A DNA stretch of 64,000 nucleotides from assembly GCA_045121295.1 (NCBI GenBank), contig JBGVFV010000117.1, positions 5,349 to 69,348 on the forward strand, given 5' to 3'. The stretch is from Candidatus Pelethenecus sp. Its GTDB lineage: Bacteria > Bacillota_I > Bacilli_A > Acholeplasmatales > Anaeroplasmataceae. The position numbers were made by a program, and so were the translations under genes. The notes beneath the pieces were generated by a model, which made no database searches, was not told the origin of the DNA, and saw only the letters and a list, made by a program, of their open reading frames with translations. This document shows, piece after piece, positions 20,989-49,746 of the stretch. Each line of letters opens with the position of its first letter. Position 1 is the first letter of the stretch.

Positions 20989-21003
20989 ATTATTCCTCCT
21001 TAC

Positions 21004-21456: not shown

Positions 21457-21459
21457 TTA

Positions 21460-23345: not shown

Positions 23346-23580
23346 TAGTCTCTACCAACTTTATTATTTCTTCTAGGATATCCATAGAACAATCATTACT
23401 ATAATTAGTAGCTAATTGATTTAGGATTAATTCAACATTTATATCCTTATTTATATATAAAGGAATCTTTTCTGGATTCATTAATAAATAAGATATTAGG
23501 ATTCTAGGAAGCTCAGGGATTATATTATTTTTATATTTGTATTGGATGAATACATAGGTTTGTCGGTTTTTGTCGTCCAT
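23335..23580 (-). CDS. hypothetical protein
   Basis: 81 aa. It is coupled by overlaps to the rep gene (1 nt) and the helicase gene (11 nt). Confidence 0.45.
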   Translation of the reverse strand: MDDKNRQTYVFIQYKYKNNIIPELPRILISYLLMNPEKIPLYINKDINVELILNQLATNYSNDCSMDILEEIIKLVETNDL

Positions 23581-34845: not shown

Positions 34846-36792
34846 CTAATAATTTTCATAAATTTTTTTTGCTATTTTTTCTTTTGGAAGACGATCTATA
34901 TTAGCAGCCTTTAACATTTCATTCCAATAATGTATGTTTTTATCGGCATGATGTGTTACCAAATCGAAAATAATCCAATTTTCTGCCCTATATAAAATTG
35001 GTAATTTGGCAGCTTTTTGAAGTAAATCAATAGTAAACATAGGCGCCAAATTCAGACCTATAGCCATTGCTAAAATAGATCCAAATTCTGGATTAGCATC
35101 TATATTATTAATATAATCACTTATTGTTTTTCTAGAAATAAGACACTGTTCTTCTAATTGGTCTTGTGTGTAACCTTTTCTATCGATATGTACTTTTAAA
35201 GTTCCACCAAATGTCATAGGTAAGCTTCTCATAATTTCAGCATATTCTTTAGCTACATCAACACTATGCTTAATATCTTCCGCTTTCTCTTTTGCTATTC
35301 TTTCAGCTTCATATAATACACATCTATTTTCATCCTTACTTAAATCGCAAGTAACTTCTTCAAAATTACATCCAGGTGCCTTACATAAATAAATAACTTC
35401 ATCATTATCACTAGGTTCTTGTACTGAACTAGATACATTAAAACATAAGCAATATTTGCTAACATCTTCTAATACATCATTTCGAAGCCATTTTACTTGA
35501 CCTATTCGAATAAATAAATTCGGATTATTTACTACTAAGAATCCATCAACATATATTATTTTATTCATGGCATAAGCACTCATCAAATCTGTGTTATTAC
35601 ACAACAATTCAACTAATGCTTCTTTGCCAATTTGATATGTTTGATTTTTACTCAATATTCCATCTGGAAAAGAATAAGGTTCACACCAATTTCCATCAAT
35701 ACAATTATATACACCTTTCGCTAAATCAAAACCTAATTGAATCGCACGAATTTTAGCAACTGTATGAGAAACCCCATAATGGTCTGCTACTGCTTCGATT
35801 ACCTTTTTTACTATTTCGGCTTTTGAATAATTCTTATATTCTTTTTGAATCAATTCATACTGTTCATAAATATAATCTCTTGCAGTCCGAGTAGGTACTA
35901 AAATATGAGGAGCAATATTATTTGCTTGCCATTCCATCCACTTCTTAGCATTTTTCTTGATGGCTGATTTTTGAATATTACTGTCAAAAACATTACAAGA
36001 AATATATGATTCAAAAACATCAGGATTTAATATTTTTTGAAGTTCAAAATACTTTCTATGTAGCCACCAGTGAACACACTCATGAATTAAAGTGTTGTTA
36101 TACACTCCAGGATATTTAGTAAAAGCTTCATCAGGATTTGCGATAATAGTTCCACATCTAACATCGCAATTAACTACATCGTTATCATCATTATAAATAT
36201 TAAATTTAGTATCACTAAAAATGGTCATCCCATAAATATTTTTTCTTAAAGATGCTTGATAATAATTTATATTCATATTTTTAATAACTTCACTAATATT
36301 AACACCAACTTGATCGAATAACGCATCAGGATAATATTCCATTAGAAATGCTTCTGCATACTTATCTAATTCATCTGAAGATATATAAGGTATAAATTCT
36401 TTAGTTAAAATTTTATCAGTATCTCTTTGTACATCTCCTGGTTGAATATCAATGACAGTTAAATCATGTAAGCCGTCTTTTAAAATACCATCCATTGTAA
36501 ATGTTGCTTTAAAACTTATTAAAGTTGATTTTTTTACATTATTCATTACTACGTATGTATCAATAACGAATCCAACAACAGCATCAAAAGACAAATGTAA
36601 ATCATCTGTATAATAGGCTGTTACTTTTTTTACCTCTGAACCAATATATGAAAACTTACTAAAATCAATTCTTCTAAGAGTATTGATTAATCTATAGATT
36701 TCATTATGATTTTTAGAATACAAAGCAGTGACAAAAACTTCTTTGTGTTCTTTATTTAAATAGTCAACAAAATCTTTATATTTCTTTGTCAC
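34846..36792 (-). CDS. large ImmA/IrrE-type (M78) metallopeptidase fused to a C-terminal XRE-like HTH
   Basis: 648 aa with GTG start and RBS AAGGAG. Motifs: HECVHWWLH ... MEWQANNIAPHILVP. The C-terminal segment is GYTQDQLEEQCLISRKTISDYINN. Confidence 0.6.
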   Translation of the reverse strand: MTKKYKDFVDYLNKEHKEVFVTALYSKNHNEIYRLINTLRRIDFSKFSYIGSEVKKVTAYYTDDLHLSFDAVVGFVIDTYVVMNNVKKSTLISFKATFTMDGILKDGLHDLTVIDIQPGDVQRDTDKILTKEFIPYISSDELDKYAEAFLMEYYPDALFDQVGVNISEVIKNMNINYYQASLRKNIYGMTIFSDTKFNIYNDDNDVVNCDVRCGTIIANPDEAFTKYPGVYNNTLIHECVHWWLHRKYFELQKILNPDVFESYISCNVFDSNIQKSAIKKNAKKWMEWQANNIAPHILVPTRTARDYIYEQYELIQKEYKNYSKAEIVKKVIEAVADHYGVSHTVAKIRAIQLGFDLAKGVYNCIDGNWCEPYSFPDGILSKNQTYQIGKEALVELLCNNTDLMSAYAMNKIIYVDGFLVVNNPNLFIRIGQVKWLRNDVLEDVSKYCLCFNVSSSVQEPSDNDEVIYLCKAPGCNFEEVTCDLSKDENRCVLYEAERIAKEKAEDIKHSVDVAKEYAEIMRSLPMTFGGTLKVHIDRKGYTQDQLEEQCLISRKTISDYINNIDANPEFGSILAMAIGLNLAPMFTIDLLQKAAKLPILYRAENWIIFDLVTHHADKNIHYWNEMLKAANIDRLPKEKIAKKIYENY

Positions 36793-36809: not shown

Positions 36810-39725
36810 CTAATAATATTGTTCGATGTATTTGTATGCTTTATCAAAAACATCTACATCCTTAATTTTATATTTAATCCATACTACACTACGTAGAGCT
36901 TTTTTAACTTCTTGCTTACCAGCAGTAGTATTTTGCCAACCATCAAAACGAACTATTTTTACAATATCATCGATATCTTTAACAATTCTTTCAACAATGA
37001 TTGGAGTAGCTTTGTTTTTAACACTATTAAATAAATCAGTTAAAGCAGCTATACCTTTATCAATTTCTTCAGCAGGTACAACTTCTTTTTCTGCTTGTGC
37101 TGCTTCCTTTGCTAATTCTAATAATGTTTTTAAGAACTCAATACTTGTAATTAATCCTTGCTCATGTTTTTGTCTTAACGCTTCTAACTTTTCACCCAAT
37201 TTAACAAATCTAGGTTCATTAGCATGATCTAAAATTTTTGCAACTAAGTTAATTTCAATTTTTTTAGCTGCCTTTTTAGTATCACCATTTTTCTCAATAA
37301 AAGCGTCAATCATATCGGCATCTAGAGTTAAAATTTCTTCATTTTCATGAACTGTCCCAACTGATACATTACTATGTATCAATTCAATAGTTTTTGGTCC
37401 TAAAGCACTCCAAATTAATTTACCAGAACCATCAGTTGGCTTAACAGATTCATAAACTTTTGATAACCATTGATAGTCTACTCTATATGGTAATAAGAAA
37501 TCATCTGGTGATAAAGCATTCCAAACTCTATTTAACACACGATAATCCGCTGCAAATGCATCTTTTTCTTTATTTGTTGGAATACATTCTTGAGCTGCCA
37601 TTAATCCTTCCCAACCCATAACTGTTCTATCAACACCTAAGAAATAATCCAAACATTTCTTTAATAATGATGGTAATTGCTTTTTAACTTCTTGAATATT
37701 AGTAATAATTTTCTTCATTGAGCTTTCATCAAAATCTAGAGCTCTGGCAACATTATCAAAAATACCAGTATAATCAACAATTAAACCATGAGTTTTTCCA
37801 TCATCATATGTTCTATTTGTTCTACAAATAGCTTGAAGTAATGTGTGATCTTTCATAGGTTTATCTAAATACATTGCTTGAAGAATTGGAGCATCAAAGC
37901 CTGTTAATAATTTAGCGCATACTATAACCAGTTTTAAAGGATTTTTAGGATCTCTAAATTTATCTAAAAGTTTAGCTTCTTCGTCTCTATCTCTACGATA
38001 TTTTTTATATCTATCCTCTTTATCATTATTAGTATCAATAACAACTGTTGTTTCTTCTTCACCCATTAATTCATCAAGTGCTTCTTTATATCTTATACAA
38101 CATTCACGGTCATAACATACAATCTGTCCCTTATAACCATTTGCTTGAATCTTTTCACGGAAGTGTTTAACAATGTGTTCACACACTTTTCTAATACGTG
38201 ATGGGTTATAGAAGATAGCTTTAATGTTAACTCTAGATGACAATTCTGCTTTTTGTTCATCTGATAAACCCTCAGTTAATTCATCAAATGCAGCATCAAG
38301 ATTTTCTTGATCTACATGTAAATCTACTGGCACAGGTTCAAAATTAAGTGGTAAAGTTGCTTTATCTCTAATTGAATCAGCAAACGAATATTTACTCATA
38401 TAACCTGTTCTGTCTTCATTAGCGCCAAATGTCGCGAAAGTATTTCGGTCAATTCTATTAATTGGCGTTCCAGTCAAACCAAAGAAGAAAGCATTAGGTA
38501 ATGCTACACGCATCTTTTCTCCTAAGTTACCTTCTTGCGTTCTATGGGCTTCATCAACCATTAAGATGATATTATCTCTTCTATTTAATTCACCTTCTAC
38601 TTCACCAAACTTGAAGATTGTTGTAATTAAAATTTTTCTCATATCACCTTTAAAGAACGAAATTAATTCTTCTTTAGAACCAGCACTTGCCAAGTTTGGA
38701 ATATCAGATGCATTAAATGTTGCTGTAATTTGAGTTTCTAAATCAATACGGTCATCAACAATTACTACTGTAGGATTTCTTAACTCAGGAATCATACGTA
38801 ATTTTTGAGCAGCAAATACCATCAATAATGATTTACCAGATCCTTGGAAATGCCAAATTAGACCTTTCTTAGGATATCCTGCAATTACTCTTTGTACAAT
38901 CGCATTAGCTCCTTCATATTGTTGATAACGGCATATGATTTTGTATTTACGATATTTTTTATCTGTAGCAAATAACGTAAAGAACTGGAAGATATCCATA
39001 ACATTTTCAGGAGTGATCATATCTTCAATACTAACCTTAACATCAGCTAAAGTACCTTCTGTTTTATGGTCAGCAGTATGCCATGGACCCCAGTAATTTA
39101 ATGGGGCATTTACAGCACCATATCTAAAACACTTTCCTTCAGTTGCAAAGTTAAATACATTAGTTACAAACATTTGAGGAATACTTTTTTCATAATTTAA
39201 TATATCAGATGCCCCATCAACCCATGAAATAGCACTTCTTACTGGAGTTTTTAATTCACCAATTGCAACAGGAAATCCATTTACAAGTAATACGATATCT
39301 AATCTTTTACCGCCTTCTTCACATGGATATGACCATTGGTTAGTAACAACATATTCATTCTTAGCTAATTCTTCTTTAGTCATAGTTCCAAAGAATCTAA
39401 TAGGAACCATTCTACCATCTTTACCAAATGGATATGAATTTTCTTCAAAAATCCACTTCTTAAAAAGTTCATTTTGAGTTACTAAATTATGAGGTTGAAC
39501 TGAATTTATTAGTGTTCTTAATTTGTATATAACTTCATCTGCTCTAGACTGTTCTTCTGCTATTTCAGGATTTAATCTAATCAATGCTTTTTTTACCATT
39601 GATTCCACCATTACATCAGACAATTCACGTTCTAAATCATCAGGCGAAATATAATTCCAACCATTCTTTTTTAATGATGTTATAACTAATTGTTCTATTG
39701 TGTTATCTTCGTTAAAAATTGACAT
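36810..39725 (-). CDS. hsdR: type I restriction enzyme R subunit
   Basis: 971 aa with Walker A HFQGSGKSLL, the DEAH box MVDEAHRTQ, and helicase motif VI LQAICRTNR. Confidence 0.9.
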   Translation of the reverse strand: MSIFNEDNTIEQLVITSLKKNGWNYISPDDLERELSDVMVESMVKKALIRLNPEIAEEQSRADEVIYKLRTLINSVQPHNLVTQNELFKKWIFEENSYPFGKDGRMVPIRFFGTMTKEELAKNEYVVTNQWSYPCEEGGKRLDIVLLVNGFPVAIGELKTPVRSAISWVDGASDILNYEKSIPQMFVTNVFNFATEGKCFRYGAVNAPLNYWGPWHTADHKTEGTLADVKVSIEDMITPENVMDIFQFFTLFATDKKYRKYKIICRYQQYEGANAIVQRVIAGYPKKGLIWHFQGSGKSLLMVFAAQKLRMIPELRNPTVVIVDDRIDLETQITATFNASDIPNLASAGSKEELISFFKGDMRKILITTIFKFGEVEGELNRRDNIILMVDEAHRTQEGNLGEKMRVALPNAFFFGLTGTPINRIDRNTFATFGANEDRTGYMSKYSFADSIRDKATLPLNFEPVPVDLHVDQENLDAAFDELTEGLSDEQKAELSSRVNIKAIFYNPSRIRKVCEHIVKHFREKIQANGYKGQIVCYDRECCIRYKEALDELMGEEETTVVIDTNNDKEDRYKKYRRDRDEEAKLLDKFRDPKNPLKLVIVCAKLLTGFDAPILQAMYLDKPMKDHTLLQAICRTNRTYDDGKTHGLIVDYTGIFDNVARALDFDESSMKKIITNIQEVKKQLPSLLKKCLDYFLGVDRTVMGWEGLMAAQECIPTNKEKDAFAADYRVLNRVWNALSPDDFLLPYRVDYQWLSKVYESVKPTDGSGKLIWSALGPKTIELIHSNVSVGTVHENEEILTLDADMIDAFIEKNGDTKKAAKKIEINLVAKILDHANEPRFVKLGEKLEALRQKHEQGLITSIEFLKTLLELAKEAAQAEKEVVPAEEIDKGIAALTDLFNSVKNKATPIIVERIVKDIDDIVKIVRFDGWQNTTAGKQEVKKALRSVVWIKYKIKDVDVFDKAYKYIEQYY

Positions 39726-40227
39726 ATTTTAACCTCCTTGTAATTTTAAGTTGATTATATAAATGAAATTTCGATTTATCGCTTTGTTCAACAAATTGAA
39801 TAAATCTATTTTGTTCTAATATACTAGGAATAATAATTAAAGCATCAGTTAAATTTTCCATCTTAATATATTTTATTATTCCTCCTATTGCTTGTTCTTT
39901 TAAAACTGTTACATAATGTTCTAAAAAACGATAAAGGAATGGAACAATAACTTTATTTTTATCTTTAGATTCAACAATATAAGTTCTTTGATATGCATCA
40001 AACTTTCCATTATAATATTTTACATTTAATTCTCCATTACCAGCAACTAAAACACATTCACAATTATAACTATATGAATTAATTTTCAATATTTCTTTAG
40101 AACATGTAAAAAATGGATATATACCATCATTTGATGATGCATTTGCATCTAATTTGCCTGTTTGAATTTTAGTTAGTTCTCCAAGCTTATACTCTATACC
40201 TGTACCAGTTTTTTCCCAATTATCCAT
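39712..40227 (-). CDS. hsdS: hsdS half-gene / TRD2 cassette (single target-recognition domain)
   Basis: 171 aa ending with the conserved FVEQSDKSKF. The in-frame upstream codons read FKSQFISE (the central conserved repeat), starting directly after the recombinase stop codon. The RBS is weak. Confidence 0.7.
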   Translation of the reverse strand: MDNWEKTGTGIEYKLGELTKIQTGKLDANASSNDGIYPFFTCSKEILKINSYSYNCECVLVAGNGELNVKYYNGKFDAYQRTYIVESKDKNKVIVPFLYRFLEHYVTVLKEQAIGGIIKYIKMENLTDALIIIPSILEQNRFIQFVEQSDKSKFHLYNQLKITRRLKYVNF

Positions 40228-40252
40228 CTCACTGATAAATTGTGATTTGAAA

Positions 40253-41221
40253 CTATCCTATAAACTTTTTACAACTATTTTTTACGTTAATTTGGTTAAC
40301 CATTGCATATTGAAGTGTAGTATCAATACTTTGATGACCAAGTAAATGCTGCACTTGCTCTATAGGCATTCCTTTATCTATAGCCATTGTAGCTAAAGTT
40401 CGTCTAAATTTATGTGGATGGACTTTAGAAATCTTAGTTTTTTTTCCAATTTCCCTTAATCTTATCTCTACACCACTTATTAATAATCTATTATAAGGTG
40501 CTAACAAAGAAACAAATAAAGCTTCATTATTATCCTTTCGTTCAGATAAATATTTTTGCAAATGAATTTTAGTTCTGGCATCAAAATAAACTTTTCTTTC
40601 TTTATTTCCTTTTCCAAAAACAATACATTCTCTATTTTCAAAGTCAATATCCTTACGATTAAGTTTTACCAATTCTCCAACTCTCATTCCCGTTGATGAT
40701 AATAGATCAATTAATGCTAAATCACGCATATTTTCACATGAATCACGCATTATTTCTAATGATTCATCAGAATATGTTTCTTTCACTGTCCTTCCTGTTC
40801 GTATTTTATGAATTCTTCTCACAGGACTTTTAATAATATAATCCTCATCTTCCAACCACGAAAAGAAAGAAGATAGTATTCTTCGAACATTATCCATAGT
40901 AACTTTACTAACATCATTTGATGTTTGATATTGATCTAAATAATTTCTCAAATCTTCTGTAGTAATCAAATCTTCCTGTTTATTTATTTTTAATAACATA
41001 TTTCTTATAGTAGATTCATAATATCTTATAGACTTTTCAGAACATCCTTCTACTCTTTTTGCTGCAATAAAGCATTTTAATAAATCTTTACCTTCATTAG
41101 TTGAAGATTCATTTAATAATGAGATTAGGTTTTTTTCTAATACCTTTTCTACTTCTTTTATTTTGTTTTCTGAAATAATTCCAGATAATTCATTTATTAT
41201 TTTATTAATTATTTTTTTCAT
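40253..41221 (-). CDS. tyrosine site-specific recombinase (XerC/D-like) embedded in the hsdS cluster
   Basis: 322 aa with GMRVGEL, HPHKFRRTLAT and LLGHQSIDTTLQYA. Confidence 0.9.
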   Translation of the reverse strand: MKKIINKIINELSGIISENKIKEVEKVLEKNLISLLNESSTNEGKDLLKCFIAAKRVEGCSEKSIRYYESTIRNMLLKINKQEDLITTEDLRNYLDQYQTSNDVSKVTMDNVRRILSSFFSWLEDEDYIIKSPVRRIHKIRTGRTVKETYSDESLEIMRDSCENMRDLALIDLLSSTGMRVGELVKLNRKDIDFENRECIVFGKGNKERKVYFDARTKIHLQKYLSERKDNNEALFVSLLAPYNRLLISGVEIRLREIGKKTKISKVHPHKFRRTLATMAIDKGMPIEQVQHLLGHQSIDTTLQYAMVNQINVKNSCKKFIG

Positions 41222-41290
41222 AATATGCCTCCTTTTTGTTCCTCCGATGAGGTATTACCACGAGACGGAGGCACATCATGACCTATATGC

Positions 41291-42406
41291 TTATCCAAGA
41301 TTCTCTTGAATTATTTTTTTATATAATTTTTGTAGTTGTTCTAATGTTTTTTCTAATTCAAATTTCGATTTATCGCTCTGTTTAACTAGTTTAGTAAGAG
41401 AACAAACTTCTTCTTCATTAAATTCGCAAATCGAATAATCTAAAATATCACTATCTTTAATCGTAGGATACGTACTTCCTGTAGCACAATCAATCATTTT
41501 ATTTGTAAAATGATCTGTAGTAACAATAGTTCTTATTATTTCAGGTGAAATTTTTGTATTGGCTCTTAAAACACAAAATCCTGATGTACCAACTACATTG
41601 TTCTCTTCCAAATCATTAATAGTAATTTTTTTTAAATTAGGTCTAACTAATGAAACTAATACATCACCTAATTCTAAGACATATTTAGCACTACTTGGTG
41701 CATCTTTATATTTTATTTTAGTTGGAGAAACTATTTTTTTATTCACACCATCAATAGAAGATATTTCCACATAATTTATTTCACTGTCTTTATTAAATAA
41801 CTTAGAAGCATTAACTATATTATTTTCACATACGTCTCTTAATTTTAATGTTTTTTCTCTATTTGAAATCATCTCGATAAATTGTGATTTCACTAACTCA
41901 TCAGTTTTCTTAATTAAAAAACGATAGTTTTCGATTGTTTCATTCATCGACCATAATAATTCAGCTAATTTCTTTTGAGTATCAATATCTGGCAAATCAA
42001 ATTCTAATTCTTTTAAATCCTTCCAGTTTATTGTTGGAGATAAAGATCCTACAGAAATTTTAATAGCATTATCTAAGAAATAATCTGAACTAATAAATAA
42101 AGGAAAGAACTTTTCATCAATAACATCTGTTTTAGGTCTTAATACCATCCCGTGTGCAGAAAATATTCCGTCAAATGGTGCTATTGCTACTTTTTTTTGA
42201 TATGCTCTTCTTTTTCCAAAAAGAACATCACCTTTCTTCATTATTAATTTATCTCCAATTGGAGCAACTTCAGAACCATATCTAGATACTTTTAAAGTAC
42301 CAGAATCTAAATGTTCTAATCCTAAATAAGTATATTTATCTTCTTCTATAGGCTTTTTCTTTGCGGTCGAATTAATAGCAATATCTTCAAATTTATATCT
42401 TGGCAT
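41291..42406 (-). CDS. hsdS: type I R-M specificity subunit (two TRDs)
   Basis: 371 aa with LFGKRRAYQKK, the central TDELVKSQFIEM and the distal LVKQSDKSKFELEK. Confidence 0.9.
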   Translation of the reverse strand: MPRYKFEDIAINSTAKKKPIEEDKYTYLGLEHLDSGTLKVSRYGSEVAPIGDKLIMKKGDVLFGKRRAYQKKVAIAPFDGIFSAHGMVLRPKTDVIDEKFFPLFISSDYFLDNAIKISVGSLSPTINWKDLKELEFDLPDIDTQKKLAELLWSMNETIENYRFLIKKTDELVKSQFIEMISNREKTLKLRDVCENNIVNASKLFNKDSEINYVEISSIDGVNKKIVSPTKIKYKDAPSSAKYVLELGDVLVSLVRPNLKKITINDLEENNVVGTSGFCVLRANTKISPEIIRTIVTTDHFTNKMIDCATGSTYPTIKDSDILDYSICEFNEEEVCSLTKLVKQSDKSKFELEKTLEQLQKLYKKIIQENLG

Positions 42407-43427
42407 AATTGTTCACCTCCGAAAAAGTATAAAAGCATCTTTGCTTTATAATTTTCGATTTATCGCTTTGTTCAGCTAGTTTTATTATAGCATTTTGTAT
42501 TTCAATAATTGGGGTTTTAATTTCAATTTTCTCAACATAATCCTTTGAAATATGCTTAAGTCCACTACCTTTAAAACCATCTTGAAGAATCTCTAAATCT
42601 CTCCATAAATATAGATATGCGTACTTTGTTTTTATCCTGTCACCAAGAGTAAACACTATATTATCTGTTGTTGCTGAACATTTGCCAGCGTAATAATTTA
42701 TGGCTGCTTTTCCTCCAGTTGGAATAAATATAGATTCACCATCGTATAAATATTCATCAATCCATAATTTTTGTTCACCGCTACTATTAAAAAGCGGATA
42801 TTCACCTTCTATAGAACCATCTCTTGCTTGTATCTTAGATTTTGATTTATATTCTATAAAATCACCTAGACACAATGTATCATAACTATCACCTAACATC
42901 TCGATAAATTGTGATTTCACTAGTTCATCAGTTAAAGATAAAAGATTTTGATACGACTGCTTAGAATCCTCTATTGACCACAATAAATCTGCCAATTGTT
43001 TTTGCTTTTCTATTTCTGGTAACTCGAATTCAAATTTTTTTAATTGTTCCCATTTAACACGTGGTGATAAAGACCCAGCAGATTGAGCTACAGCATATTC
43101 AAATAACTTATCATTTTGAATGATAAATGGTAATAATTCAGGAAGAATTTTATCAGGTAATGCTTCTATTACTATAATATCACCTGAACATATCCCATCA
43201 AATTCAGCAAAGACCGCTTTTTTTAAATAAGCTCTTCTTCTTCCAAATAAAACATTTCCTTTTCTAAACATTTTAGTAAATGTTGTATCAACATTTACAT
43301 CATATTTTGTTAATTTTATTTGCATAGGAATTAGATGTTCTAAACCAACAATAGGCAGGTTGTCTTTATAAGTTTTTAATGATTCTTTATGTTCAATGGC
43401 AACATCGCCTAATTTAACTCTACTCAT
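42393..43427 (-). CDS. hsdS: type I R-M specificity subunit (two TRDs), second copy
   Basis: 344 aa with LFGRRRAYLKK, the central TDELVKSQFIEM and the distal LAEQSDKSKI. Confidence 0.9.
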   Translation of the reverse strand: MSRVKLGDVAIEHKESLKTYKDNLPIVGLEHLIPMQIKLTKYDVNVDTTFTKMFRKGNVLFGRRRAYLKKAVFAEFDGICSGDIIVIEALPDKILPELLPFIIQNDKLFEYAVAQSAGSLSPRVKWEQLKKFEFELPEIEKQKQLADLLWSIEDSKQSYQNLLSLTDELVKSQFIEMLGDSYDTLCLGDFIEYKSKSKIQARDGSIEGEYPLFNSSGEQKLWIDEYLYDGESIFIPTGGKAAINYYAGKCSATTDNIVFTLGDRIKTKYAYLYLWRDLEILQDGFKGSGLKHISKDYVEKIEIKTPIIEIQNAIIKLAEQSDKSKIIKQRCFYTFSEVNNYAKI

Positions 43428-44919
43428 TATAACTTACCTCCTCGCCTAATATTTTTTTTAATTTTTCATAGTTTATTCGCATTTCTTTAGATGCGTCAAA
43501 CCATAAATCATAATGTTGTTTAATAGTAAGTGTTTCACTTAACTCGTTTGAGGTGTTTTTAGTTACATAAAGAGGAATACTCAATGAGTAATTATTACAT
43601 TTTATATCTTGTATAGTTACAACCTTTGAAAACTCATCGATATCGTCATATTTTTCATATGCACTTGCAATCTTTATGATATGAGTTTCTTCTAAATAGC
43701 TTTGAGCATTCTTCCTTGTAACTTCATTTACTGCATTTATAAATAATACTTGACCTTTACGTTCATGTCTTTTCTTAGTTCTACAAATCATAATACATGC
43801 TTCCATAGGAGAATTATAAAATAAATTAGGACCAAGACCAATTATACATTCAAGTAAATCACTTTTTATAAGTTTTTCACGTATATCTTTTTCTTCATTT
43901 CTAAAAAGAACTCCATGTGGCAATAAAATAGCACACCTTCCACTTTCATCATTTAAACTTTTTAAAATGTGCTGGATAAAAGCATAATCTGCTCTGCCTT
44001 GAGGGGGGACACCTAAAAAATTTCTTCCATATTTATCGCTTTCAAAAGAAGTTCTATCCCATTGTGATATAGAATATGGAGGATTAGCTAAACACATATC
44101 AAATTTCTTTAACATACCATTTTCTATAAATGCTGGTGATCTAAGCGTGTCATCATTGACTATATTAAAATCTTTTACCCCATGAAGAAATAAATTCATT
44201 TTTCCTATTGCTGCAGTTAAAGAGTTAATTTCCTGACCGTATGCTGCTACATTTCTCCATTCCGCTCCTTTGCCCTTTAAATAAGCAATAGATGAAATCA
44301 ACATACCGGCACTTCCACATGTAGGATCATAAATAGATTCTCCGCTCTTTGGCTTTAAAATTTCAGTCATTAAATGTACAACTGTTCTATTTGTGTAGAA
44401 TTCTTGAGCTGTATGACCACTATCGTCAGCAAACTTTTTAATTAAATATTCGTAACCTTGACCTAATTCATCTTCAGGACAATTAGAAATAGACAATATT
44501 TTAGAACTAAAATGTTCTATGATATCTTTTAATAATCTATCTGGTAATCTATTCTTATTTGTCCAGGCAGCATCTCCAAATACTCCCACAAGCTTTTTTC
44601 CGTTTACTTTTTCTATTTTTCTAAATGCTGTAACAATCGCTAATCCAATGTCTGATGTAGTTTCTCTAACATCGTTCCAATGAAATCCTTTTGGAACTAT
44701 AAAAGTATGAAGCTCATCATCAGAAAAATCTAAAGCATCATTACCGTATTTTTGGAAAGCTTGTTCTGTTTCTTCATCATATACATCACAAATTCTTTTA
44801 AAAAACAATAAAGGAAATATGTATTGTTTATATGCACCTGCGTCAATATTTGTACGTAGCAATTGTGCAGAACCCCATAAATACGATTCTAATTCTTCTA
44901 ATGGTATTCTATTGTTCAT
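43420..44919 (-). CDS. hsdM: type I R-M N6-adenine DNA methyltransferase subunit
   Basis: 499 aa with IFPLLFFKRICDVYDEE, IYDPTCGSAGML and LANPPYSISQW. Confidence 0.9.
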   Translation of the reverse strand: MNNRIPLEELESYLWGSAQLLRTNIDAGAYKQYIFPLLFFKRICDVYDEETEQAFQKYGNDALDFSDDELHTFIVPKGFHWNDVRETTSDIGLAIVTAFRKIEKVNGKKLVGVFGDAAWTNKNRLPDRLLKDIIEHFSSKILSISNCPEDELGQGYEYLIKKFADDSGHTAQEFYTNRTVVHLMTEILKPKSGESIYDPTCGSAGMLISSIAYLKGKGAEWRNVAAYGQEINSLTAAIGKMNLFLHGVKDFNIVNDDTLRSPAFIENGMLKKFDMCLANPPYSISQWDRTSFESDKYGRNFLGVPPQGRADYAFIQHILKSLNDESGRCAILLPHGVLFRNEEKDIREKLIKSDLLECIIGLGPNLFYNSPMEACIMICRTKKRHERKGQVLFINAVNEVTRKNAQSYLEETHIIKIASAYEKYDDIDEFSKVVTIQDIKCNNYSLSIPLYVTKNTSNELSETLTIKQHYDLWFDASKEMRINYEKLKKILGEEVSYNE

Positions 44920-47314
44920 TTATATATCCTCCTCTCTTTAATAATTCAATCATTTTAGTTTCTGAATCAATTACCTTTTTATATGCTTCTAGAAATTGTT
45001 TTTCAACTTCAGCAGCAGATAAAGATTCTATTTTTCTTTTTTCAATATAATTATTTAAAGCTAGTGAATACCCATTTTTCTTGATTTCTGAGATTTCCAC
45101 CACTTTACATATTTCAACTTTATTTTCATAATTTTGATACACTTTAAATAAATCATCTATGTTATCTTGAGTCATAATAACTTGAGCACGTTTTGGAGTA
45201 TAAAATTTTGTTCCATCTATTAAACACACTTTTCCTTTATGTGACTCTTTTTTATTATTATTTAACAATAAAATGCATGCTGCAACTCCTGTAGAATAAA
45301 ATACGCCACTCACTAGAGAAATAACGCATTCAAGTTTATCAGATTCTATTAACTGAGCACGCATTTCTGCTTCTTTTCCACTCCTAAACAAAACACCTTG
45401 AGGAAGAACAACTGCACATCTTCCTCCTTGTTGTTTCATCGAAGAAACCATATGTTGAAGCCATGCAAAATCGCCATTTGAATCAGTTGGAGTTTCCCAA
45501 ATGTTTCTTCCGTATGGGTCATTCGAAAATTGGTCTGAGCCCCACTTATCTAAAGAAAAAGGTGGATTTGCAATTACACAATCAAATGTTCGAACTTTTC
45601 CAGCTTTTAAAAATTTTGGTTCTCTTAAAGTATCACCTTGCAAAATTTTAAAATCTTTTGCTCCATGTAAAAATAAATTCATTCTTGCAATTGCAGATGT
45701 TGCCAAATTTTTCTCTTGACCATAAATACGTCCATAAGTAAGTCTATCATTATTAATATGATGAATTGCTTCTATTAGCATTCCTCCTGTACCACATGCT
45801 GGATCGTATACATCATCACCAGGTTTAGGATCTAACAAATTCACTAATAACTTTACAATAGAACGAGGCGTATAAAACTCCCCTGCATTCTTCTTTGAAA
45901 GGTCAGCAAATTTTTTTATTAGAAATTCATATGCATCCCCCATAACATCTGCAGAATAATTATTATTACCTACCTTTATTGATGACATATGTTCGACTAA
46001 ATTTTTAAGTCTTTCATCTGATAATTTTGTTTTATCTGTCCAAGTAGCATCATCAAAACTACTAAATACACCGCTTAATGTATCAGGATTTGCACGTTCA
46101 ATACCACTCATAGCATTAACAATAGCTGTTCCAATATTAGAACTAGTATTTCTAACATCATTCCAGTGACAGCCTGAAGGAATAATAAAACTATGATTCT
46201 CAGCAAATGATGCAAATTCTACATCACCGCCAGATTCTTTTAATGCTTTTTCTGTTTCTTCATCATAAACATCTGATATTCTTTTAAAAAATAAAATAGG
46301 AGTTACATAACTTTTATACTCATCTTGGTTAATTGGACCACGTAAAATATTACATGCTTCAAATAAGTGGTTAAATAACTTAGTACTTGTAGTTTCTTCT
46401 GATGCGCCTTCAGTAGACTCTAAATCTTCATCTGCTTTGTTTAACACTTCTTCCATCATATTTTCTCTTCCTCCTGTTTTTACTTCTTTTTTCTTTGTTT
46501 TAATTTTTACCTTTCCTTTTTCCAGGTCAGGTTCATATGCATTTTCAAACTCAATTAAAAGTTTTAATAATCTTTCATCTAAATAAGTTAATATATGTTT
46601 TCTTATATCAGTTGGTATGCCATAGTAAGCTTCTGCGATACTACCTGTAATAGCTGCTAATGTATCACTGTCACCGCCAATGGATATAGCATTTCTTATA
46701 GCATCTTCAAATGAAGTTGATTCTAAGAATGCTTCTATTGCCTGCGGAACTGTATCTTGACAAGTTTCATTAAATTGATATGAATCTCTAATTTCATCAA
46801 GATTAAAGTTCATAGGATAATAATGTTTATTAATATAATCTCTAATTTCTAAAATATTACATCCAGTTCTAGCTAAATATATTGCTACTACAGTTGCTTC
46901 AGCACCCTTAATTCCTTCTGGATGATTATGCGTTACTTCAGTTACTTTTTTAGAAAGTGAAATGGCTTCATCCATAGAATTGGCTACCCAACCACAAGCA
47001 CTTACTCTCATTGCAGCACCATTACCAAAACTGTTATATGGCTGTGGATTATTTGAAAACATCCAATTATGGAAATTACCTCCATAACCAGAGTTAGGAT
47101 AATGTCTTCCTATACTTTGCATATATTCAATTGTTTTTTCACTTAAATTACTATAATCTTTTTCACACTCTAATAATGCTTTTGCAACCGCTAAAGTCAT
47201 TATTGAATCATCAGTAAAAAAGCATTTATAATCTAATAACGTGAATTCTTTTGAACGGTGATTGTTCCATTCATACTTTGAACCAACAATATCGCCTACA
47301 ATTGCACCTAACAT
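44909..47314 (-). CDS. fusion protein: N-terminal ADP-ribosylglycohydrolase (ARH/DraG family) + complete HsdM-type N6-adenine methyltransferase
   Basis: 801 aa in one uninterrupted ORF. ARH motifs: MLGAIVGDIVGSKYEW, FFTDDSIMTLAVA, IGGDSDTLAAITGSIAEAYYG. A Lys-rich linker follows. HsdM motifs: ILFFKRISDVYDEE, VYDPACGTGGML, IANPPFSLDKW. Confidence 0.8.
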   Translation of the reverse strand: MLGAIVGDIVGSKYEWNNHRSKEFTLLDYKCFFTDDSIMTLAVAKALLECEKDYSNLSEKTIEYMQSIGRHYPNSGYGGNFHNWMFSNNPQPYNSFGNGAAMRVSACGWVANSMDEAISLSKKVTEVTHNHPEGIKGAEATVVAIYLARTGCNILEIRDYINKHYYPMNFNLDEIRDSYQFNETCQDTVPQAIEAFLESTSFEDAIRNAISIGGDSDTLAAITGSIAEAYYGIPTDIRKHILTYLDERLLKLLIEFENAYEPDLEKGKVKIKTKKKEVKTGGRENMMEEVLNKADEDLESTEGASEETTSTKLFNHLFEACNILRGPINQDEYKSYVTPILFFKRISDVYDEETEKALKESGGDVEFASFAENHSFIIPSGCHWNDVRNTSSNIGTAIVNAMSGIERANPDTLSGVFSSFDDATWTDKTKLSDERLKNLVEHMSSIKVGNNNYSADVMGDAYEFLIKKFADLSKKNAGEFYTPRSIVKLLVNLLDPKPGDDVYDPACGTGGMLIEAIHHINNDRLTYGRIYGQEKNLATSAIARMNLFLHGAKDFKILQGDTLREPKFLKAGKVRTFDCVIANPPFSLDKWGSDQFSNDPYGRNIWETPTDSNGDFAWLQHMVSSMKQQGGRCAVVLPQGVLFRSGKEAEMRAQLIESDKLECVISLVSGVFYSTGVAACILLLNNNKKESHKGKVCLIDGTKFYTPKRAQVIMTQDNIDDLFKVYQNYENKVEICKVVEISEIKKNGYSLALNNYIEKRKIESLSAAEVEKQFLEAYKKVIDSETKMIELLKRGGYINEQ

Positions 47315-47461
47315 ATTGACACCTCCAACTAATTACACTTAATTTCAATTGTTAAAAATAAATCATTTAGATACAATTAAAACCATATTTTTAATCTTTT
47401 GTATCAAAAAATTTTTTTAAATATAGATAATCTACACAAGATTATCCTTACTTATATTTTG

Positions 47462-48769
47462 TTATTTGATTGAATTAATAGTTGCTATTTGTTGCAATAC
47501 TTCGTTAATTTCATCATCAATTTCACTTATATTTCTATAATTAACAATTTGTTTTTTTACAACATGTCTATTAACAACTAAACTATCATTATTTTCTCTA
47601 ATATCAAGAATATGTTTAAATGTTGAAATATTTTCAACCTCTATTTTCTTACTAACTATTTCATGAATTTTTGAAATTCCTTCGCCAGTCAAATTATTTG
47701 CATTACCATTTTTATACGTAAAATTAAAGTGATCATTATTACTTGCACTAATAAATCCTATGTATTTATCTTTTTTATTTTTTGATAAAACCAATAAGTT
47801 TGTTTGAATCGATGTGGCAGCCCACATTGGAGGAAGTTCAATGATACATTCAATTAAATTTTCGTTAACTAAGTAATTTCTTAGATATTCATAATTTCGA
47901 ACGGTTTTTGTTAAAAAACCCGTAGTTATAGTTAAAATAGCTTTACCTGCTTTGTTTAAGTTTTCTAAAGCTATAATAACATTAGCTATATTTGAATCAA
48001 TCATACCACCATTAATCATATACTTTCTAAACGAATGTTCATTACTATAAAATACCTCTTCAGGCAATTTTTGATTAATAGGACCATCTGCAAATACATA
48101 ATCATACTCAATTTCATCTAAACATTTATAAGCATCTTGACATCTGAAATAAACATTTTCTTTTTTTAATAAAATCATCCTAATTATAGCTATACATAAT
48201 GAATTGTAATTAATATCATTACCAACAGTATGTACATTTTGAGGTAATTTGCTTATAAAAACTCCGTTACCAACAAAAAGATCTAAACATTTTGTGTTTT
48301 CTTGAGGTTCAAACAATTTCACACACAAATCTGCTAAAGACTCGTTAGTAGTATTCATACCTTCTTTTCCTAAAGTTAAAGACAATTTATCTATGTACTC
48401 AATAATTGCTTTTTCTTCATTTTTTAAATCAAATTTAACTAATAATTCAAATACTTTTTCATTATTTCTAAAAATATTTTCATATTGTGCATATAATTCT
48501 CTAGAGAACGAAAATGACGAATTTTTAATATTATCAAAAGTTGTAATTAAATATTCACCAATTAAAGGCATAACATTTCTTCTATAAGTTAATGCTTCTC
48601 TTAAATCTAATAATACATTAAATTTTTCTTCATTATCTGCGAATAATCTATTATCAATAGAGTATTTCAAAAATACTAGGTATACAAATTTATTAAATAA
48701 ATCATAAGAACCTAAATTAGCTCTGATATCACCTAAAAATACATCAAACATTTTTTCTTTATTATTCAT
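47462..48769 (-). CDS. HsdM-like protein with degenerate catalytic motif (DGPI instead of NPPY/F)
   Basis: 435 aa from the ATG at 48769 (RBS GGAGG). It is collinear with the two hsdM genes: CLDLFVGNGVFI vs DPxCGxxGML; VGNDINYNS vs YGQEIN; YVFADGPINQKL vs CLANPPYSISQW; IECIIELPPMW vs LECIIGLGPNLF. Confidence 0.65.
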   Translation of the reverse strand: MNNKEKMFDVFLGDIRANLGSYDLFNKFVYLVFLKYSIDNRLFADNEEKFNVLLDLREALTYRRNVMPLIGEYLITTFDNIKNSSFSFSRELYAQYENIFRNNEKVFELLVKFDLKNEEKAIIEYIDKLSLTLGKEGMNTTNESLADLCVKLFEPQENTKCLDLFVGNGVFISKLPQNVHTVGNDINYNSLCIAIIRMILLKKENVYFRCQDAYKCLDEIEYDYVFADGPINQKLPEEVFYSNEHSFRKYMINGGMIDSNIANVIIALENLNKAGKAILTITTGFLTKTVRNYEYLRNYLVNENLIECIIELPPMWAATSIQTNLLVLSKNKKDKYIGFISASNNDHFNFTYKNGNANNLTGEGISKIHEIVSKKIEVENISTFKHILDIRENNDSLVVNRHVVKKQIVNYRNISEIDDEINEVLQQIATINSIK

Positions 48770-49331
48770 GTTGACCTCCATTAGCAATTAAAGCTTCTAT
48801 TTTTTCTTGTTGTAAATTAATTAACTTATCCAGCAATTGCTTATTTTTACTCATCTTTATAAATTCATTCCCAATTGCCTTTTGTTTTTCTAAAGGAAGT
48901 AATGGAATATCTAAAGATTTCAATTGACTAATTGATAAGATACCAATTGTATTTCCTGTTACAAGTCTTAATACTTGTTCTGAGAAAGCTTTAGAATTAA
49001 TATATGCTAATACATAGAATAAATCGTATCTAAAGTCTTTTAATCTTAAAATAGCACAGAAAGATGGAACAACTAATCCAGAAGTACTAGAATCAATTAT
49101 ACAACCGTTATATGGAGTAGATAATTTAATAATCAAATCTTTTTCCATACTCATCTTTTCTGGTTCTAAGAATACTTTCATTTTATTTTCTACTAATTCA
49201 CTTTCCACTACACTACCGAAATTAATAGCTTTTGGTAATAAAACTTTTCTTATTTCAACCTCATTTATTTCTGTAGTGATTCTTGACATTACTTGACCAG
49301 AACTTACATTAAAAATTTCATTAATTAACAT
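48762..49331 (-). CDS. single-TRD HsdS-like specificity protein
   Basis: 189 aa from the ATG at 49331 (GGAGG 9 nt upstream). It has the conserved LDIPLLPLEKQKAIGNEF plus a coiled-coil tail. Its stop overlaps the start of the downstream gene. Confidence 0.65.
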   Translation of the reverse strand: MLINEIFNVSSGQVMSRITTEINEVEIRKVLLPKAINFGSVVESELVENKMKVFLEPEKMSMEKDLIIKLSTPYNGCIIDSSTSGLVVPSFCAILRLKDFRYDLFYVLAYINSKAFSEQVLRLVTGNTIGILSISQLKSLDIPLLPLEKQKAIGNEFIKMSKNKQLLDKLINLQQEKIEALIANGGQHE

Positions 49332-49746
49332 ATAAATATTCCTCCTCATTATAGAAATAGTTATTATACTTAGAATATTTTCTAACATTTCTAACCATTC
49401 TATTTTTATATATAGTATATTCGTGTTGAATAGGATTTTCTTTCTTAGATGTATTATAATAATCCTCTTCAATTCTTTCATATAAATCTATAATTTTATT
49501 TTGTTCTTGTTTAGAGTGGCAATTAAGATACGGATCAGCTTTATTAATTGTAATTAAATCATCAAATTCTTTTTTGCTTATTACTTTTACATCAATAATA
49601 GCATCTTTATGATGATGCTTCACTCTTGGTGCGTATCTTGCTATCTCAGCTGCGTCTTTTTTATTTTCAGCTTCAATAGGCAACCAAATCTTTATACAAT
49701 TATTAATTCCTACATGACCACATTTAACATAAACCTTACAATACAT
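49321..49746 (-). CDS. hypothetical protein
   Basis: 141 aa from the ATG at 49746 (GGAGG 9 nt upstream): MYCKVYVKCGHVGINNCIKIWLPIEAENKKDAAEIARYAPRVKHHHKDAIIDVKVI... It is the first gene of a three-gene overlapping unit. Confidence 0.5.
   Translation of the reverse strand: MYCKVYVKCGHVGINNCIKIWLPIEAENKKDAAEIARYAPRVKHHHKDAIIDVKVISKKEFDDLITINKADPYLNCHSKQEQNKIIDLYERIEEDYYNTSKKENPIQHEYTIYKNRMVRNVRKYSKYNNYFYNEEEYLYVN

Follow-up and report, generated by a model that had tools for sequence, protein, structure and literature searches.

Why should the methyltransferase subunit of a type I restriction-modification (R-M) system carry an ADP-ribosylglycohydrolase (ARH) domain? This question is raised by a single open reading frame (ORF) in the window, by which we mean the whole 64,000-nucleotide stretch of Candidatus Pelethenecus sp. 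DNA analyzed here. The initial annotation of this DNA had suggested that the ARH part might strip ADP-ribose from incoming DNA, protect the R-M complex, or couple methylation to an ADP-ribose signal.

Results

The fusion ORF spans positions 44909 to 47314 on the minus strand (read 47314→44909) and consists of 801 uninterrupted codons; the plus-strand translation of the same interval is riddled with stops. Reading of the sequence places the start at an ATG (47314-47312) with a Shine-Dalgarno sequence, GGAGG (47322..47326, minus strand), 7 nt 5' of it. All motifs quoted in the initial annotation were located in the translation, namely, GAIVGDIVGSKYEW, FFTDDSIMT, GNGAAMRVS, and GGDSDTLAAITGSIAEAYYG on the ARH side, the linker KGKVKIKTKKKEVKTGG, and ILFFKRISDVYDEE, VYDPACGTGGML, and IANPPFSLDKW on the HsdM side. 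Pfam, fold, and motif evidence agree on a complete type I M subunit preceded, in the same protein, by an ARH domain in which the metal-site motifs are intact. A frameshift artifact is excluded, since the identical 801-amino-acid protein was called on two contigs, one of which is an independent Logan assembly, and the best 120 database clusters matching the protein are all full-length fusions. The fusion is a real gene.

The methyltransferase part of the fusion (residues 311 to 801; 44909..46384, minus strand) comprises an HsdM_N domain, a catalytic domain, and a C-terminal tail. Pfam matched HsdM_N to residues 315 to 442 (E = 3e-25) and the gamma-class N6_Mtase domain to residues 454 to 763 (E = 2e-96), and both motif I (DPxCGTGG, within VYDPACGTGGML) and motif IV (IANPPFSL) of an HsdM protein are present; against TIGR00497, the fusion scored 221 bits, below the equivalog cutoff of 243, and the product of the next gene was likewise below the cutoff. 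This next gene (499 codons; 43420..44919, minus strand) overlaps the fusion ORF by 11 nt, in agreement with the overlap reported previously, and had been taken for a conventional hsdM paralogue, which proved to be a misreading. In the M1M2S class of type I systems, known from PacII, BceNI, Sen483I, and others (Morgan et al. 2016, PMC5100572), two hsdM genes, one with NPPF (M1) upstream and one with NPPY (M2) downstream, adjoin hsdS. M1 produces m6A on one half-site and M2 produces m4C on the other, with a single S subunit holding both and HsdR carrying out restriction, and structures of the PacII M1M2S complex with DNA are available (7VRU and 7VS4; Zhu et al. 2022, PMC9613975). Neither of these two papers mentions an ARH domain. 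The defining motifs are NPPF and AGEF for M1 and NPPY, AAEF, an NSPME loop, and a conserved arginine for M2 (PMC5100572, PMC9613975). The fusion contains NAGEFYTP and NPPF. The downstream protein contains NPPY, YNSPMEAC, and an arginine (R22) that aligned with R29 of PacII M2, and it has AQEF where AAEF is expected, a one-residue deviation also seen in its relative P0271. The best PDB match of the fusion's methyltransferase part was PacII chain A (464 bits, versus 409 bits for chain B) and that of the downstream protein was chain B (549 bits, versus 417 bits for chain A), the assignment of chain A to M1 and of chain B to M2 being based on NPPF/AGEF and NPPY/AAEF, respectively, as seen in these alignments. 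The top four Foldseek matches were 7vru and 7vs4, and the downstream protein is 43% identical to the methyltransferase part of the fusion. The NPPY motif, the NSPME loop, and the chain B match led us to reject a redundant second hsdM gene. Judged by these motifs and matches, the locus is predicted to encode a two-methyltransferase type I R-M system of the M1M2S heterotrimer kind, in which the fusion is the m6A-type M1 and the next gene product is the m4C-type M2.

The hsdS and hsdR partners expected in a type I operon are present in overlapping or closely spaced genes, and the reported order after M2, i.e., two hsdS genes, a recombinase, an hsdS cassette, and a single hsdR gene, was confirmed by Pfam. 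All lie on the minus strand. The first hsdS gene (344 amino acids; 42393..43427; Pfam Methylase_S, PADLOC Specificity_I) overlaps the M2 gene by 8 nt, and the N-terminal target recognition domain (TRD) of its product is 60 to 72% identical across related loci; the second (371 amino acids; 41291..42406), also recognized by Pfam and PADLOC, encodes a protein whose residues 1 to 206 are 41% identical to the first. The tyrosine recombinase (322 amino acids; 40253..41221; Pfam Phage_integrase with a SAM-like N-terminal domain) has copies with 64 to 75% identity in many related loci. The cassette is a half hsdS (171 amino acids; 39712..40227; Pfam Methylase_S) oriented like the other hsdS genes, with which it shares direct repeats and nothing else. 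The hsdR gene (971 amino acids; 36810..39725) matched Pfam HSDR_N, SWI2_SNF2, and T1R_D3-like and TIGR00348 (492 bits). Among the hsdS genes, direct repeats of 31 to 60 nt were found, and no inverted repeats were found. An hsdS inverton was rejected because all hsdS genes lie on one strand and the repeats are direct only, although a recombinase is present.

Genes of possible accessory function flank the system on both sides. Located 17 nt after hsdR is a gene for a 648-amino-acid ImmA/IrrE-like peptidase and helix-turn-helix (HTH) protein (34846..36792, minus strand; weak Pfam matches to Peptidase_M78 and HTH_3), which matched phrog_4031 (E = 4e-109) and is followed by a terminator-like hairpin (34766-34726). 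Its homologues come after hsdR in L003, L004, L007, L033, and L035, with weaker matches elsewhere in L031 and L094. On the other side, 147 nt 5' of the fusion ORF and on the same strand, lie a gene for an S-like protein (239 amino acids; 49481..48762; weak Pfam Methylase_S) and one for a methylase-like protein (441 amino acids; 48787..47462; Pfam N6_Mtase, E = 3e-23), which lack a canonical NPPY/F motif and for which the best PADLOC matches, all weak, were Specificity_I and mad5 and mad2, respectively. As no terminator was predicted between this pair and the fusion ORF, the earlier view that the fusion heads the operon is unproven. About half of the related loci encode an analogous methylase-like/TRD protein of about 535 amino acids at this position, for which no homology to the pair was detectable.

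The ARH domain (residues 1 to 260; 46535..47314, minus strand) was claimed from motifs, and this claim is supported by three lines of evidence. Pfam matched ADP_ribosyl_GH (PF03747) to residues 1 to 233 (E = 4e-36; 125.5 bits versus a cutoff of 26.2), the AlphaFold2 (AF2) model of the domain alone is all-alpha (pLDDT, 89; pTM, 0.90), and all 50 PDB matches listed by Foldseek are ARH-family proteins (TMq, 0.65 to 0.76), including MJ1187, ARH3, TTHA0132, DraG, Lmo0067, Tri1, and ARH1. The closest relatives are ARH3, MJ1187, DraG, and the Listeria ART-ARH immunity protein; the domain also matched phrog_6572 (E = 6e-58). The ligands of the binuclear metal site (T/S-D-D, D-x-D-T, and an N-terminal acidic residue) are all present, with FFTDDS aligning with YTDDT and GGDSDT aligning with GGDTDT of ARH3. 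Residues D8, E15, T34-D35-D36, H129, and D215-x-D217-T218 are invariant in 39 aligned fusions, and D8, E15, T34, D35, D36, D215, D217, and T218 are at least 90% conserved in 97 members of the ARH subfamily. The ARH domain is therefore predicted to be catalytically intact. By alignment, it is also conserved as strongly as the methylase domain, with a mean pairwise identity across fusions of 77%, versus 74% for the catalytic methylase domain. It is acidic (pI of about 5; net charge, -11), as are its stand-alone relatives.

Between the two domains lies a tether (residues 261 to 310; 46385..46534, minus strand) whose basic patch, KGKVKIKTKKKEVKTGGR (net charge, +4.6), gives way to an acidic stretch (net charge, -6.6). 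Its mean pairwise identity is only 46%, but its basic and acidic character is kept across fusions. In the AF2 model of the fusion, the tether forms a small hairpin (residues 263 to 272) and a helix (residues 283 to 300), residues 302 to 335 have a pLDDT below 50, and no confident ARH-methylase interface was seen (pTM, 0.46). The model suggests a flexible charged tether of about 50 residues.

The uninterrupted ARH-M1 fusion was found in about 45 species loci, which belong to bacteria of several phyla and to one archaeon, and in every complete species locus, it is followed directly by M2. It is intact in 58 of 60 metagenome loci. A frame-disrupted copy (L120) and a closely related M1 without the ARH domain (L176) were observed, and a separate ARH gene beside M1 was never seen in the species or metagenome loci. 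The fusion is obligately paired with M2 and widely spread horizontally, and its single origin followed by horizontal transfer means that its conservation counts as one evolutionary event. The initial annotation knew of no description of this architecture. None was found in a full-text literature search of limited extent; however, the fusion is not rare, and sequence databases commonly list it, with no other name than "N-6 DNA methylase." What is new is the ARH domain on M1, the M1M2S class itself being already known. Since M1M2S systems without an ARH domain are fully functional (PMC5100572), the domain is an accessory that is dispensable for core M1M2S function.

The ARH subfamily (about 260 residues) comprises 1930 representative clusters at E values below 1e-30. 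Its members also stand alone, occur on phages and plasmids, or are fused to many unrelated partners, such that the subfamily is promiscuous; partners include SseB as well as defense-like proteins other than M1 (PD-T4-6-like kinases, PDC-M09A, and mad6). Stand-alone relatives with 62 to 77% identity lie in unrelated housekeeping neighborhoods, with no conserved neighbors found. By Pfam, no member of an ADP-ribosyltransferase (ART) family and no DarT (DUF4433) were found among the 36 window ORFs scanned (about 20 to 60 kb), and neither these ORFs nor those related loci whose genes were listed with Pfam matches yielded a writer enzyme (ART, sirtuin, or TIR) as a partner. With no ART among the scanned ORFs, the substrate would come from an outside enzyme. 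PADLOC returned no DarTG family among the best 25 families for each of ten locus proteins. A DarTG toxin-antitoxin system was rejected, as no DarT was found among the scanned ORFs and the eraser has an ARH fold, not that of a macrodomain or NADAR protein.

Discussion

We tentatively propose that the tethered ARH domain is an eraser of protein ADP-ribosylation imposed by invaders. The adenine subunit M1 has acquired the domain at its N terminus on a flexible charged tether, and the domain would hydrolyze ADP-ribose from proteins wherever the M1M2S(R) complex sits. The marks would be set by a phage- or plasmid-encoded ART of the invader, and the first candidate targets would be the R-M subunits themselves and neighboring proteins, such that restriction and methylation would be kept working during the first minutes of infection. 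We infer the hydrolysis of ADP-ribosyl-protein bonds, the invader origin of the marks, and the R-M complex as the protected target. This proposal is consistent with a fusion that is real and maintained, with an acidic domain of confirmed ARH fold that is as constrained as the methylase and has invariant predicted metal ligands, and with the presence of the same module on other defense-like proteins. Moreover, the known substrates of biochemically studied ARH relatives are ADP-ribosylated proteins or O-linked ADP-ribose (PMC9503650). The lack of an ART among the scanned ORFs also fits, and the same logic was used in PMC9503650 to predict host ARG-centric systems directed against viral ARTs. On the other hand, the promiscuity of the module and the unrelated neighborhoods of its stand-alone relatives mean that the fusion may not imply a physical partnership, and the single evolutionary event behind its conservation and the lack of a confident AF2 interface also count against the proposal. 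To our knowledge, and from a literature search, no type I R-M subunit has been reported to be ADP-ribosylated. The class of substrate is not readable from sequence; the data mildly favor protection of proteins over stripping of ADP-ribose from DNA and lend little support to a signaling role.

It is conceivable, though somewhat unlikely, that the ARH domain works just as its relatives do when they stand alone, e.g., in the clearance of ADP-ribose adducts such as O-acetyl-ADP-ribose or in general immunity against ART toxins, and is merely co-expressed with the R-M genes, the physical link being mechanistically meaningless. The size of the subfamily and its many unrelated partners, the stand-alone copies without conserved neighbors, the flexible tether with no predicted interface, the functional ARH-less systems, and the ARH-less relative L176 would all fit, but the fusion is unbroken across phyla in 58 of 60 metagenome loci and all complete genome loci, a separate ARH gene is never seen beside M1, the character of the tether is retained, and the module recurs on defense-type proteins. 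We consider it unlikely that the tethered domain instead frees DNA bases or ends near the recognition site from ADP-ribose, on phage DNA with a protective mark or on DNA struck by DarT-type toxins, whereby the site could be read, methylated, or restricted. ARH3, a close structural relative, can strip nucleic acid ends of phosphate-linked ADP-ribose, and the domain is tethered, via a conserved basic patch, to a complex that clamps DNA; however, M1M2S clamps duplex DNA, whereas DarT targets single-stranded DNA, and we know of no phage that ADP-ribosylates its own DNA against restriction. The ARH domain is, furthermore, strongly acidic and not more basic than its stand-alone relatives, and the scanned ORFs include no DarT. 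Type I R-M operons often contain inserted DarT/DarG modules for DNA ADP-ribosylation (PMC8883491), and phages carry orphan DNA ADP-ribosylglycohydrolases such as the NADAR protein AdfN (PMC11825919). An ARH-fold protein, DarG3 of DarHTG, has been proposed as an antitoxin to DarT (PMC13069673), but this is based on structural similarity only, and the DarG enzymes described are macrodomain or NADAR proteins (PMC11825919). That the domain is a DNA de-ADP-ribosylase stripping a protective or toxic mark at or near the recognition site is, in our view, improbable; if true, this would be the first R-M enzyme to have "de-modification" built in, and among Firmicutes of gut and soil, ADP-ribosylated DNA would be a genuine weapon against restriction or between genetic elements.

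We think it very unlikely that ADP-ribosylation of Hsd proteins or an ADP-ribose-derived small molecule sets the balance of restriction and methylation, for instance in restriction alleviation, with the ARH domain resetting or sensing this state. Type I systems do need restriction alleviation control, and the catalytic residues are conserved. ARH enzymes such as DraG are regulatory erasers (PMC9503650), but no ART, sirtuin, or TIR was found in the genes scanned, M1M2S systems that lack the ARH domain manage without a switch of this kind, and nothing in our data points to ligand sensing.

Compared with known systems, the locus resembles PacII-type M1M2S systems in its gene order, M1(NPPF), M2(NPPY), S, and R, and in that each subunit is closest to one PacII chain, with an M1/M2 identity of 43%, versus 45 to 55% in the M1M2S literature. 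It differs in the extra 310 N-terminal residues of M1 (ARH domain and tether), in its several hsdS genes and tyrosine recombinase, and in the AQEF of M2. Multiple hsdS genes, shared repeats, and an adjoining tyrosine recombinase are also found in phase-variable hsdS loci (SpnD39III-type invertons and SpnIV-type excision/reintegration); the arrangement resembles the rarer SpnIV or Sphaerochaeta type (PMC7672463) and not an inverton.

The ARH domain shares with the ARH/DraG superfamily (ARH3, ARH1, DraG, Tri1, MJ1187, and Lmo0067) the PF03747 match, an all-helical fold (TMq of about 0.7), the T-D-D and D-x-D-T metal motifs, an N-terminal GD...E motif, and a TH motif. However, with about 260 residues, it is a minimal form, is only 20 to 24% identical to any solved structure, has no adjoining cognate ART, unlike DraT-DraG, Tre1-Tri1, and Lmo0066/67, and is joined to a DNA methyltransferase. 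With DarTG modules in type I operons (PMC8883491), the locus has in common an ADP-ribose eraser genetically coupled to type I R-M, and with DarHTG (PMC13069673), it shares an ARH-fold eraser, proposed there as the partner of a DNA ART; unlike both, it lacks DarT, its eraser is fused to HsdM and is not a separate antitoxin, and action of the ARH domain on DNA is hypothetical. Host ARG-centric conflict systems, for which a role against viral ADP-ribosylation has been predicted (Iyer, Burroughs, Anantharaman, and Aravind 2022, PMC9503650), differ in being regulated operons that include genes for Nudix or WYL regulators, phosphatases, and chaperones, and the terms "R-M," "HsdM," and "methyltransferase" are absent from that text. 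The locus nevertheless resembles them in having an ARH domain without a cognate writer, in the variable partner domains, including SseB, and in the inferred logic of erasing marks that would be set by an invader's ART.

RESULTS

An ARH domain fused to a type I methylase in a tightly coupled operon

The initial annotation described an ADP-ribosylglycohydrolase (ARH) domain fused to a type I methyltransferase subunit at 44909..47314. The ORF is real and has 801 codons, but it is encoded by the minus strand, and translation of the plus strand is full of stops; read from the minus strand, it starts with an ATG preceded by GGAGG, and all of the peptide motifs originally quoted are found in its translation. 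Pfam places ADP_ribosyl_GH at residues 1-233 (E 4e-36, 125 bits versus a cut-off of 26), HsdM_N at residues 315-442, and N6_Mtase at residues 454-763. The 11-nt overlap with a second hsdM gene (44919..43420, same strand) was confirmed, as was the order downstream of it: two hsdS genes, a tyrosine recombinase gene, a half hsdS gene, and hsdR, all on the strand of the fusion. The first hsdS gene overlaps the second hsdM gene by 8 nt, the two hsdS genes overlap each other by 14 nt, and hsdR overlaps the half hsdS gene by 14 nt, and the genes 3' of the fusion are tightly coupled. Located 17 nt past hsdR, on the minus strand (34846-36792), is a gene for a 648-aa ImmA/IrrE-like and HTH protein with weak M78 peptidase and HTH matches. 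This protein matches phrog_4031 over its full length (E 4e-109). Counterparts of ~640 aa also follow hsdR in Listeria, Anaeroplasmataceae, and other loci, and the protein may serve the cassette as a conserved accessory or as a regulator; a strong terminator-like hairpin (34766-34726) is located just past the end of its gene.

While the operon stands, the claim that the fusion heads it is unproven. Directly upstream, 147 nt away and on the same minus strand (47462-49481), an S-like gene (239 aa) overlaps a methylase-like gene (441 aa), and no terminator was predicted between this pair and the fusion. A promoter scan was of no help in this AT-rich DNA, giving fewer hits than were obtained in shuffles, and the window yielded no match in tRNA or Rfam scans. 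The methylase-like gene has no canonical NPPY/F motif, and the best PADLOC matches of the pair are weak: the methylase-like gene matches mad2, and the S-like gene matches Specificity_I/mad5. At the equivalent position, about half of the related loci encode a ~535-aa protein (for example, L003:8367-9986, L087:973-2580, and about 24 other loci) that combines a degenerate methylase-like domain (motif IV S-x-P-x-F) with a single TRD. With 24 of these proteins as the basis of an HMM, the methylase-like gene gave no match and the S-like gene showed only weak TRD-level similarity; membership of the window pair in the family was rejected, and we regard the two as analogous but not detectably homologous.

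The two methylases belong to the M1M2S class

Morgan et al. 2016 set out a class of type I systems in which the upstream methylase, M1 (NPPF), produces m6A and M2 (NPPY), downstream and adjoining hsdS, produces m4C, with M1, M2, and one S subunit forming a heterotrimer (PMC5100572). Zhu et al. 2022 described AGEF (M1) and AAEF (M2) as diagnostic motifs, together with a conserved M2 arginine (PMC9613975). A Foldseek structure search with the full-length model of the fusion returned the PacII M1M2S-DNA complex (7VRU/7VS4) on top. The methylase part of the fusion scored 464 bits against PacII chain A versus 409 bits against chain B, and the downstream methylase scored 549 bits against chain B versus 417 bits against chain A; chain A was taken to be M1 and chain B to be M2, based on the NPPF/AGEF and NPPY/AAEF motifs in these alignments. 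The window M1 resembles the class in having NAGEF and IANPPF, and the window M2 does so in having LANPPY, an NSPME loop, and an aligned Arg22. The sole deviation from the published M2 signature is AQEF in place of AAEF (residues about 170-175), which is common to relatives such as P0271. Robertmurraya has two methylases and a single hsdS gene, as expected for a heterotrimer. From the PacII matches, the motifs, and this single hsdS gene, the second hsdM, initially described as unfused and conventional, is no redundant paralogue but the cytosine-methylating partner M2. By every sequence criterion examined, the operon belongs with the two-methyltransferase type I systems already described.

An intact and constrained ARH domain on a permanent tether to M1

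Modelled alone, the ARH domain is predicted with confidence as all-helical (pLDDT 89, pTM 0.90), and the 50 Foldseek PDB matches listed are all ARH-family proteins (MJ1187, ARH3, TTHA0132, DraG, Tri1, ARH1, and Lmo0067, an ART-ARH immunity protein of Listeria). In the HMMER alignment, FFTDDS falls on the T-D-D motif of ARH3 and GGDSDT falls on the D-x-D-T motif. These residues, and likewise D8, E15, and H129, do not vary among 39 fusions (69-87% identity) and hardly vary among 97 further members of the subfamily. The annotation had left the ARH fold and the metal-binding residues to be checked; the PF03747 profile and the predicted structure agree on the former, the alignment contains the latter, and by profile, modelled fold, and active-site residues the domain belongs to the ARH superfamily. 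Across fusions, mean pairwise identity is 77% for the ARH domain, 46% for the tether, 84% for HsdM_N, and 74% for the methylase catalytic domain. The charge pattern of the tether is kept, its basic patch carrying net +4.6 and the acidic stretch after it net -6.6; the tether is partly disordered in the full-length model, in which the inter-domain arrangement is unreliable (pTM 0.46). Overall, the ARH domain is intact, under constraint, and permanently joined to M1.

The fusion is widespread

A frameshift or assembly artefact, a concern raised with the initial annotation, was excluded: the identical 801-aa protein is present on two contigs, one of them from an independent Logan assembly, and almost every related locus has the fusion unbroken. 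In a search against a 5.8-billion-protein collection, the best 120 clusters all had 100% query cover, a length of about 800 aa, and the proposed combination of PF03747, PF12161, and PF02384, under no names other than "N-6 DNA methylase" or "type I restriction enzyme M protein." Among the carriers are Listeria innocua, Anaerosphaera, Robertmurraya, Acholeplasma, Mycoplasmopsis bovirhinis, and Lachnospiraceae. Two 90%-identity clusters comprise 3891 and 1730 sequences, the one sampled also pooling M2 paralogues; its 499-aa ARH-less members, considered as unfused M1, are the M2 paralogue lumped in by clustering. An ARH-domain scan of one genome per species identified about 45 fusion loci in Bacillota, Spirochaetales, an alphaproteobacterial MAG, Akkermansiaceae, Synergistaceae, and a Methanomethylophilaceae archaeon. 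Every complete locus has a ~805-aa fusion followed directly by a ~499-aa second methylase and then hsdS, often with a recombinase and extra hsdS pieces, and with hsdR either downstream or upstream. Among 60 metagenome loci retrieved by way of the second methylase, 58 contain an uninterrupted fusion, one is frame disrupted, and one (L176) has an ARH-less M1 of 513 aa. The latter locus (L176:1133-5524) is a close relative of the cassette, with an M2 that is 72% identical; its M1 gene is overlapped by the preceding AAA_14/DUF4143 ATPase gene and is also preceded by a gene for a 507-aa ankyrin-repeat protein.

The whole cassette is 70-80% identical at the protein level across bacterial phyla and a gut archaeon (L017, L028, L031, and the Methanomethylophilaceae locus L021), which points to recent inter-phylum and inter-domain transfer, and a few predicted viral contigs carry it whole. 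In human-gut variants (L087-L089, about 11.7-15.5 kb), two further genes come after the hsdS genes, one for type IV restriction of the GmrSD type and one for a 653-aa protein without Pfam hits, so that a small defence island is formed.

Related ARH domains form a mobile module

An exhaustive ARH-domain search yielded 1930 representative clusters (E < 1e-30), comprising ~260-aa stand-alone proteins and many longer ones with the module at either end. Most partner regions of 97 longer representatives had no Pfam match; annotated partners included SseB, DUF6508, protein kinase, HD_4, GNAT, patatin, and RecA, and a few regions matched the defence models PD-T4-6, PDC-M09A, and mad6. HsdM fusions account for 2 of these 97, consistent with one fusion lineage. 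Stand-alone copies that are 62-77% identical to the fused domain lie in unrelated housekeeping neighbourhoods: the 142 neighbouring ORFs at 39 loci were scattered housekeeping genes with no recurring partner or transferase, and guilt by association was discarded as a guide to their function. Related copies are also carried by phages, both those of Porphyromonas and Bacteroides and very large uncultured ones (records of 462-735 kb), and by plasmids, including those of Clostridium botulinum. In the Porphyromonas and Bacteroides phages (L085:5001-6102 and L086:5001-6090), a stand-alone ARH gene is followed by an overlapping ~108-aa hypothetical gene, the pair ending a block of small early-type genes; as the two phages are unrelated, this pairing suggests that the small gene encodes a partner protein.

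The hsdS array and the surrounding element

The three hsdS genes (39712-43427) lie on one strand and adjoin the tyrosine recombinase gene. The repeats that they share, in their conserved regions, are all direct (31-60 nt), and no inverted repeats were found between them. The array resembles the rarer SpnIV/Sphaerochaeta type, in which hsdS switching occurs by excision and reintegration, and not an inverton. The Listeria ST8 phase-variable hsd locus (PMC4783014) was considered and set aside, being a different system with a single hsdM. The cassette has the appearance of cargo carried by an integrated mobile element that spans roughly 13-52 kb, a reading based on three large serine recombinases, an AAA_25 ATPase, a UvrD-like helicase, and a Rep_trans rolling-circle initiator encoded at 13781-24704 and on shikimate-pathway genes from 55.8 kb onward. 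Between 24.8 and 32.3 kb are large proteins without a family match, two of which have signal-peptide-like N-termini.

DISCUSSION

Few bacterial defences are as common as type I R-M systems, and phages, toxins, and defence systems all make wide use of ADP-ribosylation as a weapon. To our knowledge, a link that joins an R-M enzyme to an ADP-ribose eraser has not been characterized. The fusion is such a link, abundant and intact, with a role that we infer from the following considerations.

ARH-less M1M2S systems methylate and restrict (PMC5100572), and the close relative L176 has no ARH domain, so the domain is an accessory. With one M1 per complex, the asymmetric M1M2S methylase would bear exactly one ARH domain, on the side of the adenine half-site. 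No ADP-ribosyltransferase families were found by Pfam in 36 window ORFs (about 20-60 kb) or in those related loci for which Pfam hits of the called genes were tabulated, and hence any substrate must be the product of an enzyme whose gene lies elsewhere. The likeliest source would be an invader, a logic that Iyer et al. 2022 applied to host ARG-centric systems (PMC9503650). Phage or plasmid transferases would put ADP-ribose on proteins, the R-M complex first of all, and the M1-tethered ARH domain would erase it. Given an intact, constrained, and tethered domain, no local transferase, and an invader as the likeliest source, we tentatively favour such an eraser of invader-made protein ADP-ribosylation, a reading that is plausible though short of probable.

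The ARH domain could instead erase ADP-ribose from DNA. It is conceivable in light of the association of DarTG with type I R-M (PMC8883491), the proposed ARH-type DarG3 (PMC13069673), the orphan DNA-ADP-ribose hydrolases of phages (PMC11825919), and the basic patch in the tether. However, the ARH surface is acidic and no different from that of stand-alone relatives, an ARH-fold enzyme with demonstrated DNA activity was not found in the cited literature, and DarT did not appear among the window ORFs scanned, all of which makes a DNA-directed role unlikely. A DarTG-like module was rejected, as neither DarT, a macrodomain, nor NADAR was found (Pfam, 36 window ORFs at ~20-60 kb; PADLOC matches listed, ten proteins). 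The promiscuity of the module would fit a mere passenger, yet the physical link to M1 is retained near-completely, and we consider this null explanation rather doubtful. A regulatory switch acting via the ARH domain would be without a writer and seems very improbable.

Returning to the tethered eraser, the fusion raises the question of whether invaders ADP-ribosylate restriction complexes or DNA and whether hosts reply with an eraser fixed to the methylase. Since the fusion occurs in the culturable Listeria innocua and Robertmurraya massiliosenegalensis, this question is directly testable. The combination of ARH with M1 is absent from both M1M2S papers (PMC5100572, PMC9613975), and an ARH-HsdM fusion is absent from the NAD/ADP-ribose survey (PMC9503650); full-text literature searches found no description of it, in line with the earlier statement that none was known. 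Of the two counts on which novelty could have failed, the architecture is common in databases, where it stands under generic names, and no earlier characterization of it was found. Taken together, what is known is the M1M2S operon class, and what is new is the accessory ARH domain on M1, overlooked so far.
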